From IMG/VR virus record IMGVR_UViG_3300024346_000003: a stretch of 64,000 nt of DNA; one strand, written 5' to 3'. A program made the translations under genes and the position numbers. Below are positions 1 to 35,273 of this stretch, piece by piece. How positions within the stretch are numbered: position 1 is the stretch's first letter; each line of letters starts with the position of its first letter. The notes under the pieces were generated by a model. It was given only the letters and a program-made list of their open reading frames with translations, ran no database searches and was not told where the DNA came from. The stretch comes from a virus. Its lineage: Duplodnaviria; Caudoviricetes.

Positions 1-625
1 CCTTAGCATTATTAATACCTATAGCGTTTACTATTTGTCTTAAAAAAGTTTGTCTACTTTCAGTATTACTTTCTTTATACTGATTTATAAGATTAACAAC
101 TTCTTGTTCTTTATCTCTAGATAATTTTGTTTTATAATCAGCAACATCTGATATACTCATGTAATAGTAACCATCAATTAATTCAGCACTATCTAAAATT
201 TCATTTGTTGACCTAACTCTTACATCAGCATATGAACCTCCAGCTTTTGATGGGTCCCAAATAGTAAAAGCTTCAATTGAACCGTCTGATGTTGGTCTAT
301 ATATACCACCATTTTTTAATTCTTCCTGTAGTCCAGCATTTATCCAAAGTTGCTCATCTGGTATCACTATATCTAAATCACCAATAGTACCACTTAATCC
401 AAATGCGTCTCTTAATTTGGGGTACAAATACAATCTAGCTGACCCACCAATGAAGTACGATTTATTATTGGGTACTATACCAAATTTTTTAAAAATTAAT
501 TCATCAGCTTTACTTAATAATGTGTTTAAACCACTAGTGTCAACTTCATTTACTAAATCCTCACTTACGTTTTTCCAAAATTCTTTTAAAAAAAATTCGT
601 TTATATAAATCTCACTTAATCTCAT
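1..625 (-). CDS. Nucleotidyltransferase-fold protein (partial, runs off window start)
   Basis: Not in ORF track; read manually from ATG at 625: MRLSEIYINEFFLKE...SYFIGGSARLYL...GDLDIVIPD (GGS plus DxD Pol-beta-like signature). Confidence 0.65.
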   Translation of the reverse strand, partial: MRLSEIYINEFFLKEFWKNVSEDLVNEVDTSGLNTLLSKADELIFKKFGIVPNNKSYFIGGSARLYLYPKLRDAFGLSGTIGDLDIVIPDEQLWINAGLQEELKNGGIYRPTSDGSIEAFTIWDPSKAGGSYADVRVRSTNEILDSAELIDGYYYMSISDVADYKTKLSRDKEQEVVNLINQYKESNTESRQTFLRQIVNAIGINNAK

Positions 626-932
626 ATTCTTTTAATCTATCAATTACTTCTTTATTGTATTGACATTCAATTGTCAATTTTTTAAATGATAGAAACATAC
701 TTAATGGTCTTGGTCCATTTAGAAATAAGAAATTATAAGCTGACCATTCACTAGTCACATAATAACTTTTTCTATTTTCCATTATATCCAATAAACACAT
801 TGGGTGTTTATTGACATATTTCCAATCATATTTGTAACAAAGTTTAGATAAATTTTTCATAAATAACCTAAACTCAATAATTCTAGTGATTAATGTTACT
901 AGAACAAACCCTAAAAGTGTAATTGCTATCAT
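612..932 (-). CDS. Hypothetical protein with N-terminal TM segment
   Basis: 106-aa ORF with hydrophobic N-terminus, same strand as neighbours. Confidence 0.7.
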   Translation of the reverse strand: MIAITLLGFVLVTLITRIIEFRLFMKNLSKLCYKYDWKYVNKHPMCLLDIMENRKSYYVTSEWSAYNFLFLNGPRPLSMFLSFKKLTIECQYNKEVIDRLKEYEIK

Positions 933-943
933 ATTATAAATAT

Positions 944-1090
944 TTAAACTTTATCAAATATAATAACTATTTTTGTACTATCCAAATTTATTTGATTATT
1001 TTTTTGATTATTTAAACCATAAGCATCACATGATGTTTTCTTTGTAGCACAAGATGCTAGTATTATTGCTAGTAATAGTAATTTTTTCAT
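944..1090 (-). CDS. Small putative lipoprotein (48 aa)
   Basis: Manual read MKKLLLLAIILASCATKK...; lipobox LASC; ATATTTAT motif upstream. Confidence 0.6.
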   Translation of the reverse strand: MKKLLLLAIILASCATKKTSCDAYGLNNQKNNQINLDSTKIVIIFDKV

Positions 1091-1110
1091 ATTAATAAAT
1101 ATATACTAAA

Positions 1111-1140
1111 AATAAAAATGGTCAACACCTTGCTGACCAT
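1111..1140 (-). terminator. Intrinsic terminator ending tRNA array 1
   Basis: ATGGTCA-GCAAGGTGT-TGACCAT hairpin followed by T-rich tract. Confidence 0.75.
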
Positions 1141-1144
1141 ATTG

Positions 1145-1228
1145 TACGGATAGTCGGACTCGAACCGACAATCATATTTCAGAACACGGGTCTAAGCCGT
1201 GCGGGTCTACCAATTCCCCCATATCCGC
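1145..1228 (-). tRNA. trnL: tRNA-Leu(TAG)
   Basis: GCGGATA/TATCCGT acceptor, CACGG-CTTAGAC-CCGTG anticodon arm, long variable arm, TTCGAGT T-loop. Confidence 0.93.
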
Positions 1229-1233
1229 ATTTA

Positions 1234-1334
1234 AGATTGAAGTAGGTCTCAAACCTACACAGTAGCCTTTGTTAGACCTCTAATGCTACCACCCCAGGTT
1301 ATCGAGGCATGTCTATCAATTCCATCATTCAATC
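1234..1334 (-). pseudogene. Degenerate class II tRNA-like element with extended variable arm
   Basis: GATTGAA/TTCAATC acceptor, Leu-like D-arm, T-arm GTAGG-TTTGAGA-CCTAC; anticodon arm imperfect. Confidence 0.55.
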
Positions 1335-1336
1335 TA

Positions 1337-1419
1337 TGGTAGTCCGAGAGGGACTCGAACCCTCACTCCGAAGAACTGCGGCTTAAACACAGCGTGTATA
1401 CCAATTTCACCATCGGACC
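1337..1419 (-). tRNA. trnL: tRNA-Leu(TAA), encoded CCA
   Basis: CTGTG-TTTAAGC-CGCAG anticodon arm; ends GGACTACCA. Confidence 0.95.
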
Positions 1420-1465
1420 ATTTTGCACTTCCTACCCATCCATATCGTATAGTGCTAACCGCTAG

Positions 1466-1539
1466 TACACCCTGTAGGATTCGAACCTACGACCCTTCGG
1501 ATGTAAACCGAATGCTCTAACCAACTGAGCTAAGGATGT
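1466..1539 (-). tRNA. trnV: tRNA-Val(TAC)
   Basis: TTCGG-TTTACAT-CCGAA anticodon arm; canonical D and T arms. Confidence 0.95.
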
Positions 1540-1550
1540 ATATGGTAGGT

Positions 1551-1880
1551 TTAACCTACCTTTATAAATGTTTCATTCTTTATGGCTTTACTAATCCATC
1601 TGTTAAGCTCGGAGCCTCTCATTTCACTGTAGAAAGTAGTTGTTCCAAGGTCTTCAGACAATGTTGTGACCACATCTGACTCCTTAACTTCTGCATCAAC
1701 TTCTAAAGTTGATACATGATATCTAACCTTTACATCAACTGTTGAAATTGGAAACTCGTATATATCACCAAACACTTCAATGTTGTAATACAAGTTACCA
1801 GCAATATAGTGACTAAACTTAGCCATTGCTTTTGACTTAAATAAGTCTTTTTTTATTTCAGTTTCATTAAACATAACCAT
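1551..1880 (-). CDS. Hypothetical phage protein within tRNA array 1
   Basis: 109-aa ORF, co-oriented. Confidence 0.75.
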   Translation of the reverse strand: MVMFNETEIKKDLFKSKAMAKFSHYIAGNLYYNIEVFGDIYEFPISTVDVKVRYHVSTLEVDAEVKESDVVTTLSEDLGTTTFYSEMRGSELNRWISKAIKNETFIKVG

Positions 1881-2025
1881 TTTTTTTTCTTCGTTTAAAG
1901 AGTAACTTTATAGTATTTAAACTAATCTTATTATTTTTATCAGCTCTAACATGTCTAAAATTTTCATATGACCCTTTATATGTTCCCGTTAATACTACTT
2001 TCCCCTCATTATCTTTTCTTTCCAT
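1867..2025 (-). CDS. Small basic hypothetical protein (52 aa)
   Basis: Manual read MERKDNEGKVVLTGTYKGSY...; fills the gap between tRNA-Cys and the next ORF. Confidence 0.45.
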   Translation of the reverse strand: MERKDNEGKVVLTGTYKGSYENFRHVRADKNNKISLNTIKLLFKRRKKNGYV

Positions 2026-2039
2026 AATCTATCTTTTTG

Positions 2040-2112
2040 AGCTGGGAGAGGGATTTGAACCCCCGTATGTGGATTTGCAATCCACTGCCTAAAGCCACTC
2101 GACCATCCCAGC
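2040..2112 (-). tRNA. trnC: tRNA-Cys(GCA)
   Basis: GTGGA-TTGCAAA-TCCAC anticodon arm; U73 discriminator. Confidence 0.95.
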
Positions 2113-2118
2113 ATTAAA

Positions 2119-2151
2119 CAAAAAACCCGAAGTGACTAATCGCTTCGGGTT
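2119..2151 (-). terminator. Attenuator terminator of tRNA array 1
   Basis: AACCCGAAG-CGATTAGTCA-CTTCGGGTT plus T-run, ending about 7 nt before tRNA-Cys. Confidence 0.85.
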
Positions 2152-2180
2152 GTGAATATTGTTTATTTATTATTAAACTA

Positions 2181-2255
2181 TCAACACAGCCCGAAACTGA
2201 CTACCACTAAAAGTAGACATAAGTTAAGTACCAAAATGTTGTTAATTGTTTTCAT
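2181..2255 (-). CDS. Leader peptide 1, MKTINNILVLNLCLLLVVVSFGLC
   Basis: 24-codon ORF between promoter and terminator; codons 8-19 are 11/12 Leu/Val/Cys; its 3' end is complementary to the terminator 5' arm. Confidence 0.8.
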   Translation of the reverse strand: MKTINNILVLNLCLLLVVVSFGLC

Positions 2256-2289
2256 CGTATTAATTTTTTAATCGTTTTAATTAAATATA

Positions 2290-2324
2290 TGCAAATATAC
2301 TAAAAGTTTTTTAATTTGTCAAGT
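2290..2324 (-). promoter_or_regulatory. Bacteroidota-type promoter of tRNA array 1
   Basis: TTG(ACA)-N20-TATATTTG; nearly identical to 23427-23461. Confidence 0.8.
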
Positions 2325-2366
2325 TTTTATGTAAAAATATTTTTTTTATTTACAATTTAACCAAAT

Positions 2367-2696
2367 TTGATTATAATTTACCCAATGGATAAGGTATATT
2401 TACTAGCAAATGAAGAATGGACACAATTTAAAATTGGTGTCACAAAAAACGTAACTAATAAACGAAAAAGTGATTTACAAACTGGTAATGGTTCTGAAAT
2501 AATTATAGTTAATACTTTTGAAACTAGATTTTCAAACAAAGTTGAGAAGTGGTTGCATAGAAAATACAATTCAAAGCGATTAGTTGGTGAATGGTTTGCG
2601 CTTAATGACAATGATATTACTAATTTCATATCTGATTGTCAAAAAGCGCATGATACATTCCAATGTTTAATCGATAGTGGGAATCCTTTTATATAA
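2367..2696 (+). CDS. T5orf172/GIY-YIG-superfamily endonuclease-like protein (likely start 2385)
   Basis: VYLL...FKIGVT...R.SDLQTGN...EKWLH...GEWF. Confidence 0.8.
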   Translation: MIIIYPMDKVYLLANEEWTQFKIGVTKNVTNKRKSDLQTGNGSEIIIVNTFETRFSNKVEKWLHRKYNSKRLVGEWFALNDNDITNFISDCQKAHDTFQCLIDSGNPFI

Positions 2697-3899
2697 GGTA
2701 GTACTATCTTCTAAATTATAGAATTCCCGTCTAATATGAATTAACAACCCATCTACTAATCTTGAATCAACCTTTTTAGGTAAATCTGAATTATCAAATA
2801 TACTATCCATTTCTTCAATAGCCTGGTCAGCCATTGCTATTAAATTTTCCAAATCAACTTCACCACGTCTAATTGCAAGTAACTCTTGAGCATCTTCTCT
2901 ACGAACATTAATACCTTCACCTCTACCAATCTCTTGGGCCATTCTAATAAGTCGAATACAATGCATCATATTCTTACCATCGATGCGTTGACCATGTTCT
3001 TGCGTTTCAACATAGCGAGTCTCATTACGGTTTTCCAACCATTCTTGATATTCTCTATAGTCTTTGCAGTGCATAGTGTAACCATCTTTGTTATAGATGA
3101 TATTACAAATAGGTGTTTCACCTTTTGGTATGCTTGAAAGACGTAGTTGGTTGGATTCAGCAGCGTTTGCACCTTCATCAGTTTTAACAAGACCTTTGTA
3201 ACCTAACGCATAAGGTTCGGAATAATACTTTTTACCTTCTTCTCTATCTTCTTCAGATAAGTTTTCAGAAAAACAAGCTTGAGCAACTTCATCATGATAA
3301 ACTGCATATACATCTCTAGCATTTGGGACATTTACAACGCCGCAAAATTTGTTCTCATACTTAATATATTCTTGACTATATTTAGGTTTATCCATGCACC
3401 ATATTTTCCATGGTATAGACTTTTCACCCTCAATAACGTATACGAAATCCAATACATCTTTACGAGTTACTTTGTCTTTCTCCCAGTTTTGTTTCTTATC
3501 AAGACCTTTCGCTTTCTTAATTTGTTGTCTAGCATAACCACCGAATGAATCCTTACAAATCTGTGTAATAAAGTCATCTTTATGTGCTAGTATATCATCA
3601 AACAATGGATGTTTAGATACAATGCAATCTTCAGGGCTATTAAGTAATTCTAAAACTGTTGGGTTATTGCTACCCATTAGTTCTAGGAAACGTCTAATTT
3701 CCCACCCAACGTAATCTTTATTTACGTTTATTTGTTCAACATACCCAGTACCTAAGATATAATCTTGTGGTAGTATATATACAAATTTTTTGTCTATATC
3801 AGATGTTGGTGTCTGCGTTCCATACGCTTGTGACCCAACTATTGTTTCAAATAGGATTAACCCATTTTCAACTAAAAATTCATGCGTTATTTGTTTCAT
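2667..3899 (-). CDS. Pol-beta-superfamily nucleotidyltransferase (RlaP/YcgL-like)
   Basis: IVGSQAYGTQTPTSDID motif; C-terminal KNMMHCIRL and LLAIRRGE. Confidence 0.85.
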   Translation of the reverse strand: MKQITHEFLVENGLILFETIVGSQAYGTQTPTSDIDKKFVYILPQDYILGTGYVEQINVNKDYVGWEIRRFLELMGSNNPTVLELLNSPEDCIVSKHPLFDDILAHKDDFITQICKDSFGGYARQQIKKAKGLDKKQNWEKDKVTRKDVLDFVYVIEGEKSIPWKIWCMDKPKYSQEYIKYENKFCGVVNVPNARDVYAVYHDEVAQACFSENLSEEDREEGKKYYSEPYALGYKGLVKTDEGANAAESNQLRLSSIPKGETPICNIIYNKDGYTMHCKDYREYQEWLENRNETRYVETQEHGQRIDGKNMMHCIRLIRMAQEIGRGEGINVRREDAQELLAIRRGEVDLENLIAMADQAIEEMDSIFDNSDLPKKVDSRLVDGLLIHIRREFYNLEDSTTLYKRIPTID

Positions 3900-3922
3900 A
3901 ATTCTTTTTTAAATTTAAATTA

Positions 3923-4285
3923 CTAATGAGTATTTGTTGAACGTACAATATTTTCATGTTCATCATCACCACCAAACCTTACTTCGATATAATCACAGTA
4001 ATTATCTTGCTCTGAATCCAACCACTTACAGAATTGTTCTCTGGCTATATCACCATTTTTAGAAGTGTCCCAACCCTCTTTACTACCATCTGGTGCAATA
4101 AAGAAAGAAGATTGTCCATTGGTTAAACCAGATATAATTTCACCAATTAATTTACTACCATGACGCTCAATAAGCTCACCGCTAAATTGCTCTTCAAATA
4201 TTTCAATAGCTTTATTTCGTGCCTCTAGTACTTTATCTTCTTGCCACCCAGTAACTATAATCGCATTATGTTTAATATACCCCAT
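3923..4285 (-). CDS. Hypothetical protein
   Basis: 120-aa ORF preceded by TATATTTG promoter near 4300. Confidence 0.75.
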   Translation of the reverse strand: MGYIKHNAIIVTGWQEDKVLEARNKAIEIFEEQFSGELIERHGSKLIGEIISGLTNGQSSFFIAPDGSKEGWDTSKNGDIAREQFCKWLDSEQDNYCDYIEVRFGGDDEHENIVRSTNTH

Positions 4286-4415
4286 TTTAATTTACTTTTT
4301 TACAAATATACTAATAATTCTTTAATATACCAAAAATTTTGCAAATATAATATAAAAAAAATCAAAATAAATAGTATTTAGTATTATTAAAAAATATTTA
4401 TAATAAAAGACTATT

Positions 4416-4676
4416 ATGGTGTGGTATAAAAAAGTTAGTAACTGGATAACGGGGTTATTTAAAGATGAAAAGGGTAGTCCTTCATCAAAAAGATTTATTG
4501 GTATTATATGTGGTTTATCTTTATGTGTTTCATTATTTATAAACCAATATACAGGTCATAAACCATCTGATGCCTTGGTTGATTCTGTTGCACTATTAGC
4601 ATTTGGTTGTTTAGGTTTATCTTCAGTCGATAAAATATGGGCTAAAAGAGATGGTAAAGTAGAAGAAAATAATTAA
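4416..4676 (+). CDS. Small two-TM membrane protein (holin-like)
   Basis: SSKRF followed by two hydrophobic helices and a charged C-terminus. Confidence 0.55.
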   Translation: MVWYKKVSNWITGLFKDEKGSPSSKRFIGIICGLSLCVSLFINQYTGHKPSDALVDSVALLAFGCLGLSSVDKIWAKRDGKVEENN

Positions 4677-5329
4677 TTATTTTTTTCAGAAGCATATTTA
4701 ACACCCATTATTGTCCCCACAATACTAAATGCGTTGGTTAATAATATACCAACGATATTACTCCATGTTGAGCCTACAATTGCTGTATCTCTATTTGTAA
4801 GTAAAGAAATAATAAAGACACCTGTGGTTATAATACCTACGCTGATAATAATCCATAGTGCAACTTTAACAATTGACCCTATCAATTCAAATTGTGACTT
4901 CTTCTGTAATAATTCTAAATCATTTTCAACTGAAGCTCTAGCATTTTCAGCTTCACGTCTAGCTATTTCAGATTCTTCTCTGGCATTTTCAGCTTCTATT
5001 TTTAAATGTTCAGCTTCAAATCTAGCTGATTCAGCTTCATTTTTAGCACATTCATTTTCTTTTAAACTATGAATTAATTCTTCTTGTATTCGAATATTCT
5101 CTTCCTTCCAGGTAATTAATTCATTATTTTGTTTTTGAATTTGTTTTGTGATTTCCAACCTTTTTTTTCGGGTTGTCATATCTTTGTCAACACAACTTTT
5201 GATATATTTTTCAAATAGTTCATCACCATCAGTATCAATAACTTTAAGAATATTACCCTCAAGTGAAATCTTTTTAGTTTTATGTAACTGAATTAATAAA
5301 TCTTTAGTCTTGTTGTCAACTTTAATCAT
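4673..5329 (-). CDS. Coiled-coil protein with two C-terminal TM helices
   Basis: Heptad E/A/K-rich middle and two hydrophobic segments; overlaps the receiver gene. Confidence 0.75.
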   Translation of the reverse strand: MIKVDNKTKDLLIQLHKTKKISLEGNILKVIDTDGDELFEKYIKSCVDKDMTTRKKRLEITKQIQKQNNELITWKEENIRIQEELIHSLKENECAKNEAESARFEAEHLKIEAENAREESEIARREAENARASVENDLELLQKKSQFELIGSIVKVALWIIISVGIITTGVFIISLLTNRDTAIVGSTWSNIVGILLTNAFSIVGTIMGVKYASEKNN

Positions 5330-26308: not shown

Positions 26309-26946
26309 TACAATAAGTTTCTAAACATTTCGTCAATTTTCCATTTAGGCATATCTAAATCCATGCTGAATAGAATATTTCTTATTTTCTCTTCTTCTTC
26401 TCTTTGTTCGTTAACATAACCTAGAGCAAATGAATATGTATCATTGTCATCTTCACCTTTAGCTTTATTAGCAATATCGTTCCAATTCTTAGTAACTTTC
26501 ATTTCATGCTCTAACGCTTTTGCAACAACGTCTCTAACATTATTAAAGTTAACTGGAACATTTTTAACATTAGGTACAATTGCTTTAGCATTTTTTTCAT
26601 AAAGATATGTGTATATTTTTGACATATGACCTAATTCTTCATCTGCATATTTAAAGAAAAGTGCAGAACCACCAATCCAACCTTCGTCATCTAACCATGC
26701 ACTAAATGCACGATATACTTGAGATGAGTAAAGTTCATTCTCGATTTGCTTATTTAAAATAGCTGTAATACCATTACTCAATCTAGCTTTTTGTTCGATA
26801 GAGTTCTTTTTAACTGCTTCTACAATAATTTCAGCATCATCATTTCTTTTAATTTTATTAAAAGTGTTTACAAAACTTTCCAACATAGCATTTTTAACTT
26901 CGTTTGCTTGTTCTTGTCTTTTAGTTTCTGATATAATTTTTTTCAT
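26308..26946 (-). CDS. Ferritin with N-terminal extension
   Basis: LNKQIENELYSSQVY, EELGH, EHE..VT, EQREEE ferroxidase pattern. Confidence 0.88.
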   Translation of the reverse strand: MKKIISETKRQEQANEVKNAMLESFVNTFNKIKRNDDAEIIVEAVKKNSIEQKARLSNGITAILNKQIENELYSSQVYRAFSAWLDDEGWIGGSALFFKYADEELGHMSKIYTYLYEKNAKAIVPNVKNVPVNFNNVRDVVAKALEHEMKVTKNWNDIANKAKGEDDNDTYSFALGYVNEQREEEEKIRNILFSMDLDMPKWKIDEMFRNLL

Positions 26947-26980
26947 GATATACTTTTAATTATAAATATCTTAAATTAAC

Positions 26981-27005
26981 AAAAAAACCACCCGAAGGTG
27001 GTTTA
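26981..27005. terminator. Intrinsic terminator
   Basis: AAACCACC-CGAA-GGTGGTTT. Confidence 0.8.
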
Positions 27006-28184
27006 TTATATTAGATTTTTGAATTTATCAACCTCAATAGCATTTATCGCTTGACCCACTTCAGGACCATCTTTTTGTAGATTATACTTTTCTTTAGCTT
27101 CTGGTCCAGAGGTCATTGGTAATTTTAAGTATTCCTCAAAGGAATCTAACAATTGTGAACTTATACCCATATTGGCACCAAAGTTTCTTAATTGGTCACT
27201 TGATAATCCAGATTTACCAAATAAAGCTTTTAATTTCGGTGCTGTGTCAATGTTCAAATTAACCATAGCGATTAATGTTGTTATCTTTTTAACTTCATCA
27301 GCACTGTATTTTAACTCATTTAGTTTTTTAGCTAACGGCATTAATTCATTTTTAGATAATAATATCGCAATCAATACAAGTGGGTCATCGTTATCTATAA
27401 ATCTTTTATTTACATTTAAACCTTTAAACACCCAAGAGAATAATTCATATTTATCAATCATCTCAAGAAATTGTTTAGTTGATTTAGCCGATGCTAACCC
27501 TTTAATAAATTCATCTCTAATTCTTTCACCAGAAATACCTTCAAGACTTGCATCTTTCATTAAAGCCGCATCAACTGCTGGGTCTAAATCAGAACCGAAT
27601 CTACCAGCAAATCTAATAGCTCTAAGTATTCTTAATCTATCTTCAGTAAATCTATCTTCTGGCGAACCTACAGTTCTAACAATACCATTTTTAAGGTCAT
27701 TAATACCACCTACTAAGTCAACAACCTCACCAGATTCAATATCGTAGAATAACGCATTAATTGTTAGGTCCCTTCTTTTAACATCACCCTCAATATCAGT
27801 AAATGATACAGCATCTGGTCTTCTACCGCCAGATAAATCTTCCCTGAAAGTGGCCACTTCGTATTCACCTTGGTCAGTAAATACGTTAATTACACCAAAT
27901 GCTTTACCTGTTGGTAATGTTTTTAACCCAGCTTTGGTCATCATATCTTCAACTTTATCTGGAACAGCATCAGTAGCGAGGTCATAATCTTTAGGTGTTT
28001 TACCTAATAATGCATCTCTAACCGCACCACCAACAACATATAATTTATGTCCGTTTTTAACGAATATATCTTTTATTTGTTGAATATCACTAGGTATTGG
28101 GATAGACATTTTAATTCTATCTTCGTTAATAATACCTTCTCTTAATATTTGTTTAATAGTTTGTTTCATAATGCAAATATACAT
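27006..28184 (-). CDS. cca: CCA-adding tRNA nucleotidyltransferase (class II)
   Basis: VGGAVRD..LG..PKDYDLAT, RRDLTINA, EDRLRILRAIRF. Confidence 0.88.
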   Translation of the reverse strand: MYICIMKQTIKQILREGIINEDRIKMSIPIPSDIQQIKDIFVKNGHKLYVVGGAVRDALLGKTPKDYDLATDAVPDKVEDMMTKAGLKTLPTGKAFGVINVFTDQGEYEVATFREDLSGGRRPDAVSFTDIEGDVKRRDLTINALFYDIESGEVVDLVGGINDLKNGIVRTVGSPEDRFTEDRLRILRAIRFAGRFGSDLDPAVDAALMKDASLEGISGERIRDEFIKGLASAKSTKQFLEMIDKYELFSWVFKGLNVNKRFIDNDDPLVLIAILLSKNELMPLAKKLNELKYSADEVKKITTLIAMVNLNIDTAPKLKALFGKSGLSSDQLRNFGANMGISSQLLDSFEEYLKLPMTSGPEAKEKYNLQKDGPEVGQAINAIEVDKFKNLI

Positions 28185-34855: not shown

Positions 34856-34900
34856 AGATTATTCTAAACTCGTGGTAGTTTGAGTTAGAAGCGTTAAGCG

Positions 34901-35273
34901 TGGAGATGATGGGAATCGAACCCATGTGTTACTTATTCTCAAAGAGCTTTCTACATGTTTAGGTTGTAATTTACGAATTACCCAAAACCTTTCAGTTCCC
35001 TTATTAACACAGTTCGGTTTACTAACAACTAATCTTCTGCCTATTTAGTTTTAACTCCAATAAGTTAGAGGTTTCAGTGGACTACCACCATCGCATTATC
35101 TTAGGCTAATGCTACCTCTCCTGAAACTACTTCTATCGAAGCGTTTGCTAGGAAGTTTTCGTCTATGTCAAATGAATTGCCATTTACAAAAATAATAGGT
35201 GATTAAAGTGTTTCCATCTAACACTACATGCTTACTAGACAAGACCATAAATAGTCAAAGCCTGGCCATCCCC
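34901..35273 (-). ncRNA. ssrA: tmRNA; tag (A)GNSFDIDENFLANASIEVVSGEVALA
   Basis: 5' GGGGATG...TTTGAC, 3' GGTTCGATTCCCATCATCTCCA, G3:U70 pair, tag ORF 35101-35181. Confidence 0.92.

Follow-up and report, generated by a model that had tools for sequence, protein, structure and literature searches.

When, and in what amounts, does a phage make tRNAs of its own? To our knowledge, the control of this step is essentially unknown, and the debate on phage tRNAs has centred on codon usage, the loss of host tRNAs, and the evasion of defences that target tRNA. The question is posed by a locus in IMG/VR virus record IMGVR_UViG_3300024346_000003, a stretch of 64,000 nucleotides (nt) from a virus of the Caudoviricetes (Duplodnaviria) that is referred to here, at its full length, as the window, and in which a set of tRNA genes for Cys, Val, and Leu (array 1) is preceded by a promoter, a 24-codon leader open reading frame (ORF), and a terminator. 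An earlier note, made from the sequence alone, had proposed that these parts form a leader-peptide attenuator whose codons are matched to the tRNAs. Comparison with related phages supports an attenuator reading: the anatomy is in place, the ORF is conserved, both of the alternative helices covary, and the composition of the leader co-varies with the content of the array. As judged from sequence comparison, the array-1 element is probably a transcription attenuator that works through the ribosome and controls entry into a phage tRNA operon.

Anatomy of the array-1 operon

All of the parts named in the earlier note (promoter, 24-codon ORF, terminator, and tRNAs for Cys, Val, and twice Leu) were recovered in their places on the minus strand, the strand of every feature in this section. 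The promoter (2322–2292) consists of TTGACA (2322–2317), a 17-nt spacer, and TATATT (to 2294), and its TATATT hexamer is overlapped by TATATTTG (2299–2292), an instance of TAnnTTTG, which we take to be the −7 motif of Bacteroidota promoters. An A-rich 5′ untranslated region of ~30 nt, without a Shine-Dalgarno sequence, leads to the leader ORF (2255–2181; 24 codons from an ATG start plus TGA; translation MKTINNILVLNLCLLLVVVSFGLC), and an AT-rich spacer of 29 nt separates the ORF from the stem of an intrinsic terminator (2151–2120), composed of a 9-bp GC-rich stem (2151–2143/2132–2124) and a U tract (2125–2120). This terminator was missed by a consensus terminator scan, probably on account of a loop larger than that scan's 8-nt limit. 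The gene for tRNA-Cys(gca) (2112–2039) begins 8 nt past the U tract; in most leader copies examined, the first tRNA begins 8–23 nt past the terminator.

Downstream of tRNA-Cys, the operon continues with two small ORFs in the same orientation, of 52 amino acids (aa; 2025–1867) and 109 aa (1880–1551), for which a Pfam comparison gave no convincing family, followed by tRNA-Val(tac) (1539–1465), tRNA-Leu(taa) (1419–1337), and tRNA-Leu(tag) (1228–1144), each of the four tRNAs being identified by tRNA call and by Rfam. A second terminator (1140–1108; 10-bp stem, then TTTTTATTTTT) closes the operon. The four tRNAs that had been assigned to array 1 are all present, and only the contiguity implied by the earlier description has to be given up, as the 52-aa and 109-aa ORFs split tRNA-Cys from tRNA-Val. 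In a motif scan of the minus strand from 2292 to 1257, TAnnTTTG did not occur, and no promoter by which the leader might be bypassed is obvious. An internal promoter driving tRNA-Cys was likewise not supported, there being neither room nor a promoter motif between the terminator and the tRNA.

Leader codons and tRNA content of the arrays

Codons 8–19 of the array-1 leader (2234–2199) read TTG GTA CTT AAC TTA TGT CTA CTT TTA GTG GTA GTC, identical to the reading in the earlier note, with 11 of the 12 specifying Leu, Val, or Cys and both Leu codon boxes in use. Against this phage's own amino-acid background, 11 of 12 residues within {C,V,L} corresponds to P ~6e-9, a value that overstates the case for the array-1 leader class taken alone, as such a background is too lenient for a hydrophobic peptide. 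Chance is instead excluded by the paralogous leaders, which are not hydrophobic.

Related loci were fetched using an anchor, the neighbouring gene for a 410-aa nucleotidyltransferase of the RlaP family (RNA-repair pathway; 3899–2667, minus strand) that lies upstream of the tRNA operon. The 80 loci obtained lie on contigs of uncultured phages, the longest of them 368 kb, and include many in which the promoter and leader are detectable by DNA similarity. Four classes of cassette were distinguished, with classes C (array 1) and D drawn from the window and classes A, B, C, and D from the relatives. The class D, or array-2, cassette of the window (23460–23237, minus strand) is composed of a promoter (~23460–23429) that is nearly the same block as the array-1 promoter, a 32-codon leader (23393–23295), and a terminator. 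The core of this leader, HRMSISNWRRNS, is encoded by CAT AGA ATG TCG ATT AGT AAT TGG AGA CGT AAT AGT, and array 2 holds tRNAs for Asn, His, Trp, Ser(tga), Ile, Asn, Met, Arg(acg), Arg(tct), and Ser(gct), such that both Ser boxes and both Arg boxes occur in the leader and both isoacceptors of each are encoded in the array. Among the relatives, a FDFAFFAAEADE-type core rich in Phe, Glu, Asp, and Ala stands before tRNAs for Phe, Glu, Asp, and Ala, and the core TYQPKQYTQGGKP, rich in Thr, Tyr, Gln, Pro, Lys, and Gly, stands before tRNAs for Pro, Gln, Tyr, Thr, Gly, and Lys. The four amino-acid sets of the clade (3 + 7 + 4 + 6) jointly cover all 20 amino acids. In a scan independent of the anchor, which considered all small ORFs ≤450 nt upstream of any tRNA, leaders matched their array at 9–12 of 12 residues and nearly all other small ORFs at ≤8.

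The pairing of leader and array also holds where arrays are missing or differently composed. The relative G005, a complete genome of 287,855 bp with terminal repeats and only 22 tRNA genes, carries only the Pro/Gln/Tyr/Thr/Gly/Lys array and the seven-amino-acid array, together with just the two matching leaders and no orphan leader; both the Cys/Val/Leu and the Phe/Glu/Asp/Ala arrays are absent along with their leaders, which indicates that a cassette is gained or lost in its entirety. Two distant phages, LR745206 and LR756502 (634 and 642 kb; anchor protein 48–51% identical; 61 and 50 tRNA genes), partition their tRNAs differently, and their leaders follow that partition: a leader rich in His, Lys, Phe, and Trp precedes tRNAs for His, Phe, Trp, and Lys; SKSSSRSSS precedes Arg and Ser; PQPQDQDP precedes Pro, Asp, and Gln; ETIGYTGYEGAY precedes Glu, Tyr, Ile, Gly, and Ala; and a core rich in Asn, Leu, Met, Thr, Val, and Ile precedes tRNAs for those amino acids. 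When ten distinct leader/array pairs were scored against the amino-acid background of the window phage, each of the ten leaders had its own array as best fit (10/10), and the observed total was reached by none of 100,000 permutations. Co-variation of leader codons with array content in related phages, named in the earlier note as the critical test, is borne out by the four paralogous classes and by the different partition in the distant phages.

The match operates at the level of the amino acid and codon box. Nearly all core codons whose amino acid is represented in the array (328/337) can be read by the array tRNAs when wobble is allowed, and the leaders show no enrichment of exact Watson-Crick cognates (136 observed vs 160 expected). 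Tuning to exact cognates was thus not found, and the "codon-matched" leader of the earlier note is to be understood in terms of amino acid and codon box.

These compositions bear on a simpler account of the array-1 leader, in which the ORF would simply encode a small hydrophobic peptide, of a membrane or signal-like kind, and have a terminator of its own, with the tRNAs arising by read-through without regulation or from a different promoter and the abundance of Leu, Val, and Cys reflecting only hydrophobicity. The array-1 peptide is hydrophobic, with a core, LCLLVV, that is conserved as peptide, and Leu/Val-rich small ORFs are common; its paralogues, which share its promoter, N-terminus, and terminator layout, are, however, acidic/aromatic, basic/polar, or Gly/Pro/Thr-rich, each in agreement with its own array. 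The C-terminal part of the peptide moreover changes together with the terminator arm in a way that keeps the RNA pairing, and the interval before tRNA-Cys offers no site for a separate promoter. With non-hydrophobic paralogous leaders at hand, a hydrophobic micropeptide was rejected, and the account as a whole is considered highly improbable.

A further trait of the leaders is an N-terminus that is near-identical in all classes (2255–2235 and 23393–23376 in the window), those of LR745206 and LR756502 included, with the pattern M, K/R, T, I/V/M, N, N/T, I/L. This common N-terminus may serve initiation in a host without Shine-Dalgarno sequences or pausing, or may reflect only common descent.

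Two exclusive helices at the end of the leader

The class C leaders were compared in an alignment of 18 distinct, diverged Cys/Val/Leu copies, the window copy included. The ATG is invariant, the frame spans 24–27 codons in the 18 copies, and the peptide core is maintained; near-identical copies differ by only three substitutions, all of them synonymous, one of which replaces a C-G pair by U-G in the antiterminator. The leader is thus kept as an ORF, a property on which the earlier note had made its proposal depend.

The terminal part of the ORF can pair with the terminator. The 11/12 pairing described in the earlier note, between TTTCGGGCTGTG (2196–2185) and CACAACCCGAAG (2154–2143), is real and comprises ten Watson-Crick pairs, one G-U pair, and one mismatch, and only its extent needed revision, the helix of the window copy reaching 22 pairs (2208–2185/2154–2131, minus strand). 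The 5′ arm of this antiterminator (2208–2185) spans ORF codons 17–24, with a conserved core at 2196–2185, and the 3′ arm (2154–2131) runs from the three nucleotides immediately before the terminator stem (2154–2152) through the terminator 5′ arm and its loop into the terminator 3′ arm, of which it takes up the first 2 nt. As the terminator 5′ arm is contained in the antiterminator, the two helices exclude each other.

Both helices covary across the alignment. The antiterminator was paired in 81.9% of cells, with 9 of 12 pairs changed on both sides (slid controls, 26–50% paired), and the terminator in 92.8% of cells, with 6 of 10 pairs changed on both sides (slid controls, 20–68% paired); the covariation score was reached by 0/500 shuffles for either helix. 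The end of the ORF, the terminator 5′ arm, and the terminator 3′ arm consequently change together, as a two-state switch requires. The same terminator/antiterminator architecture is found in class B leaders, and none of the genuine leader copies examined lacks the terminator. In a cross-pairing control, own antiterminator arms averaged −12.9 kcal/mol vs −10.1 kcal/mol for crossed pairs, a blunt comparison given that many of the terminators are homologous, for which reason the column-wise covariation is the better test.

Folding models indicate how the choice between the helices might be made. The antiterminator is the lowest-energy fold predicted for the leader as a whole (−36 kcal/mol, z = −2.97, 0/200 shuffles as stable), and the terminator hairpin in isolation has a predicted energy of −14.9 kcal/mol. 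Masking of the last third of the ORF, in imitation of a ribosome on the stop codon, let the terminator hairpin form; when codons ~6–17 were masked, as by a stalled ribosome, the antiterminator formed and the terminator did not. Since free leader RNA folds into the antiterminator, the default state would be read-through, and the logic would not be identical to that of trp. The RNAalifold consensus of class C contains an additional hairpin inside the ORF, P1 (UGUCUAC ... GUAGUCA; 2219–2198, minus strand), which lies just upstream of the antiterminator arm and excludes that arm itself. An analogous hairpin occurs in class B leaders, and P1 is a possible RNA-polymerase pause hairpin.

A switch that opens by default could be driven by translation of the leader and still report general translation capacity (ribosome availability) or the timing of infection, with the amino-acid match acting only as a weak modulator. 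Such a general sensor is suggested by the fold of the untranslated RNA, in that any loss of ribosome loading would open the operon, by the absence of enrichment for exact cognates, and by the promoter and N-terminal codons common to all classes. It would have no need, however, of at least four leader compositions that mirror their own arrays, or of leaders that track the partition in distant phages, and it leaves aside that leader D uses both Ser and both Arg boxes exactly where both isoacceptors are encoded. It is regarded as unlikely, and sensing of the supply of specific tRNAs by a ribosome-mediated attenuator is the reading preferred here.

Proposed circuit and its relation to known systems

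In the proposed attenuator, transcription would start at the 2322–2292 promoter, and a ribosome would translate the 24-codon leader as RNA polymerase advances. Fast decoding of the Leu, Val, and Cys codons would bring the ribosome to the end of the ORF or its stop codon, where it would cover the antiterminator 5′ arm (2208–2185); with that arm covered, the terminator hairpin (2151–2124) would form and transcription would end at the U tract before tRNA-Cys. Were charged Leu, Val, or Cys tRNA scarce, the ribosome would lag at codons ~8–15, which, by the reasoning of a ribosome footprint, appear to be far enough upstream to leave the antiterminator arm free, and the arm would pair with the terminator 5′ arm. 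The antiterminator would likewise form if no ribosome were loaded. In either case the polymerase would read through into tRNA-Cys, the two small ORFs, tRNA-Val, and the two tRNA-Leu genes. As this output consists of the tRNAs needed to speed translation of the leader, the circuit would be a demand-driven and self-limiting negative feedback on phage tRNA supply. The coupling of ribosome and polymerase, the dependence of the structure on stalling, and the physiological trigger are the steps of this scheme that we infer, and cleavage of host tRNAs by anticodon nucleases, a trigger put forward in the earlier note, would be compatible with the loop.

Several points weigh against this proposal. The array-1 operon carries two protein ORFs in addition to its tRNAs; an Asn codon stands among the regulatory codons of array 1, yet tRNA-Asn belongs to another array; and in relatives, some arrays hold tRNAs missing from their leader (His in the Phe/Glu/Asp/Ala array; Pro and Met in Cys/Val/Leu arrays). 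The lack of enrichment for exact cognate codons, given above, belongs with these. In the untranslated RNA, the antiterminator arm is not sequestered by any helix, unlike the arrangement in the trp leader, where a 1:2 helix does so. The scheme also assumes that transcription and translation are coupled in the host, and a stall at Val codons 17–19, very near the antiterminator arm, might favour termination, to judge from the size of a ribosome footprint.

The closest likeness is to the attenuators of ilvGMEDA, ilvBN, thr, and leu, for which trpL and hisL are single-amino-acid prototypes. Shared traits are a small translated ORF in which regulatory codons abound, an intrinsic terminator immediately downstream of that ORF, an exclusive antiterminator that uses the terminator 5′ arm, and the use of more than one amino acid per leader. 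One account of attenuators gives their logic as one in which the regulatory codons are cognate to the controlled pathway (PMC1183508). Here, unlike in the ilvGMEDA-type attenuators, tRNA genes would be controlled rather than biosynthetic enzymes, the codons are tied to tRNA identity rather than to a pathway, the carrier is a phage (of a Bacteroidota-like host), and up to seven amino acids are addressed by one leader. There is no sequence similarity to the ilvGMEDA-type leaders, and an Rfam scan of positions 1–5000 of the window (E ≤ 1) gave no match to the Trp, His, Leu, Thr, or Leu/Phe leader families, such that the likeness is one of function and not of sequence membership. The same scan matched no T-box family, which leaves the element outside the T-boxes, and no cis-regulatory family in 2120–2330, where only a microRNA model appeared (E = 0.7); all matches above the gathering score were tRNAs.

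Three further systems are partly alike. The pheST attenuator of E. coli, with its pheM leader, controls an aminoacyl-tRNA synthetase and senses one amino acid; both there and here, leader attenuation would act on a part of the translation machinery dedicated to the amino acid of the leader's own codons, the difference being a synthetase, a single amino acid, and a cellular operon there and tRNA genes, several amino acids, and a viral operon here. T-box riboswitches share the variable, tRNA supply or charging, and the output, a terminator or an antiterminator before translation-related genes, and differ in that a T-box binds uncharged tRNA directly without a ribosome, whereas here there is a conserved ORF and the signal would lie in its codons. 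Phage tRNA clusters such as that of T4 are transcribed as units and processed from a precursor, and the present arrays resemble them in being phage tRNA genes transcribed as units; we know of no leader ORF or attenuator for such clusters. A full-text search, the coverage of which excludes most subscription journals, turned up no published account of tRNA genes, phage or cellular, under the control of a leader peptide; the one text in which the subjects occurred together was unrelated, and with this coverage the absence is no proof. The layout is a known one for attenuation, and what differs is the tRNA-gene target, the phage carrier, the number of amino acids per leader, and the default-on design.

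The short RNA released at the terminator might itself be of importance. Terminated attenuator RNAs can act in trans, as described for rnTrpL and the peptide peTrpL of the Sinorhizobium trp attenuator (PMC6614838, PMC7968998), and a terminated leader RNA or peptide acting in this manner could be the main product here; alternatively, the hairpins could be signals for the processing or stability of tRNA precursors. The N-terminal codons of the leaders are kept beyond obvious need, as a trans-acting product might require, and nothing at this locus indicates a target; a processing signal would call for neither the alternative pairing nor the codon matching. Either role could also coexist with attenuation rather than replace it, and as replacements for it both appear most implausible.

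The host of the phage and its surroundings were considered from the same comparisons. The promoter type, the relationship of the anchor gene to those of Tenacibaculum and Prevotella phages, and the marine and lake sources point to a host among the Bacteroidota. The phage or close relatives of it occur in marine and lake metagenomes, and the RNA-labelled runs among these take the form of contigs and short pieces. Judged by the RlaP gene, the closest relative in culture is Tenacibaculum phage PTm1, which is without any tRNA gene and so offers no test system, and a DNA search with the whole operon against cultured and deposited phages gave tRNA-to-tRNA matches only, with no leader homologue at that sensitivity. 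In the window, a homing-endonuclease-like ORF (T5orf172/MUG113; 2385–2696, plus strand) is situated between the leader promoter and the RlaP gene, with a 30-nt overlap at the 3′ end of the latter, and a 48-aa ORF with a lipoprotein-like signal (MKKLLLLAIILASC...; 944–1090, minus strand) and its own promoter-like site directly follows the operon-end terminator. A 59-aa ORF (23224–23045, minus strand), conserved in G005, stands between the array-2 terminator and the first tRNA-Asn, which it overlaps by 10 nt; placed past that terminator, this protein gene would also be under the putative array-2 attenuator. ARAGORN called a tmRNA gene (34900–35273, minus strand) with the tag peptide ENFLANASIEVVSGEVALA. 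Upstream of the class A leader in relatives (G002, 26650–27330, plus strand; G005, 72500–71900, minus strand), a promoter is followed by ~500 nt of conserved and apparently non-coding sequence that ends in a tRNA-like element, called by ARAGORN and not by the Rfam tRNA model. Part of the sequence upstream of leader A is reminiscent of RNase P, and in an Rfam scan of it only tRNAs reached the gathering score.

Taken over the clade, it seems likely that in giant phages whose hosts are Bacteroidota-like the tRNA genes are organised as demand-driven feedback circuits, with each block of tRNAs behind a multi-amino-acid leader that serves as a translated "test strip" for just those decoding capacities that its block provides, the blocks together covering the 20 amino acids, their partition reshuffled in evolution, and the leaders rewritten to follow. 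If so, tRNA genes would for the first time be seen under ribosome-mediated attenuation, a mechanism thereby extended to a new class of target gene and to viruses, and a virus would encode a sensor of the state of the host tRNA pool. Such a cassette would also provide, in compact and modular form, a natural sensor for tRNA supply that is open to rewiring, and leaders rewritten upon the reshuffling of arrays would offer a clean evolutionary test bed. The phage would gauge the speed of decoding for each set of codons and replenish only what is short, and the question of what phage tRNAs are for would become directly testable, by asking which conditions open which cassette.

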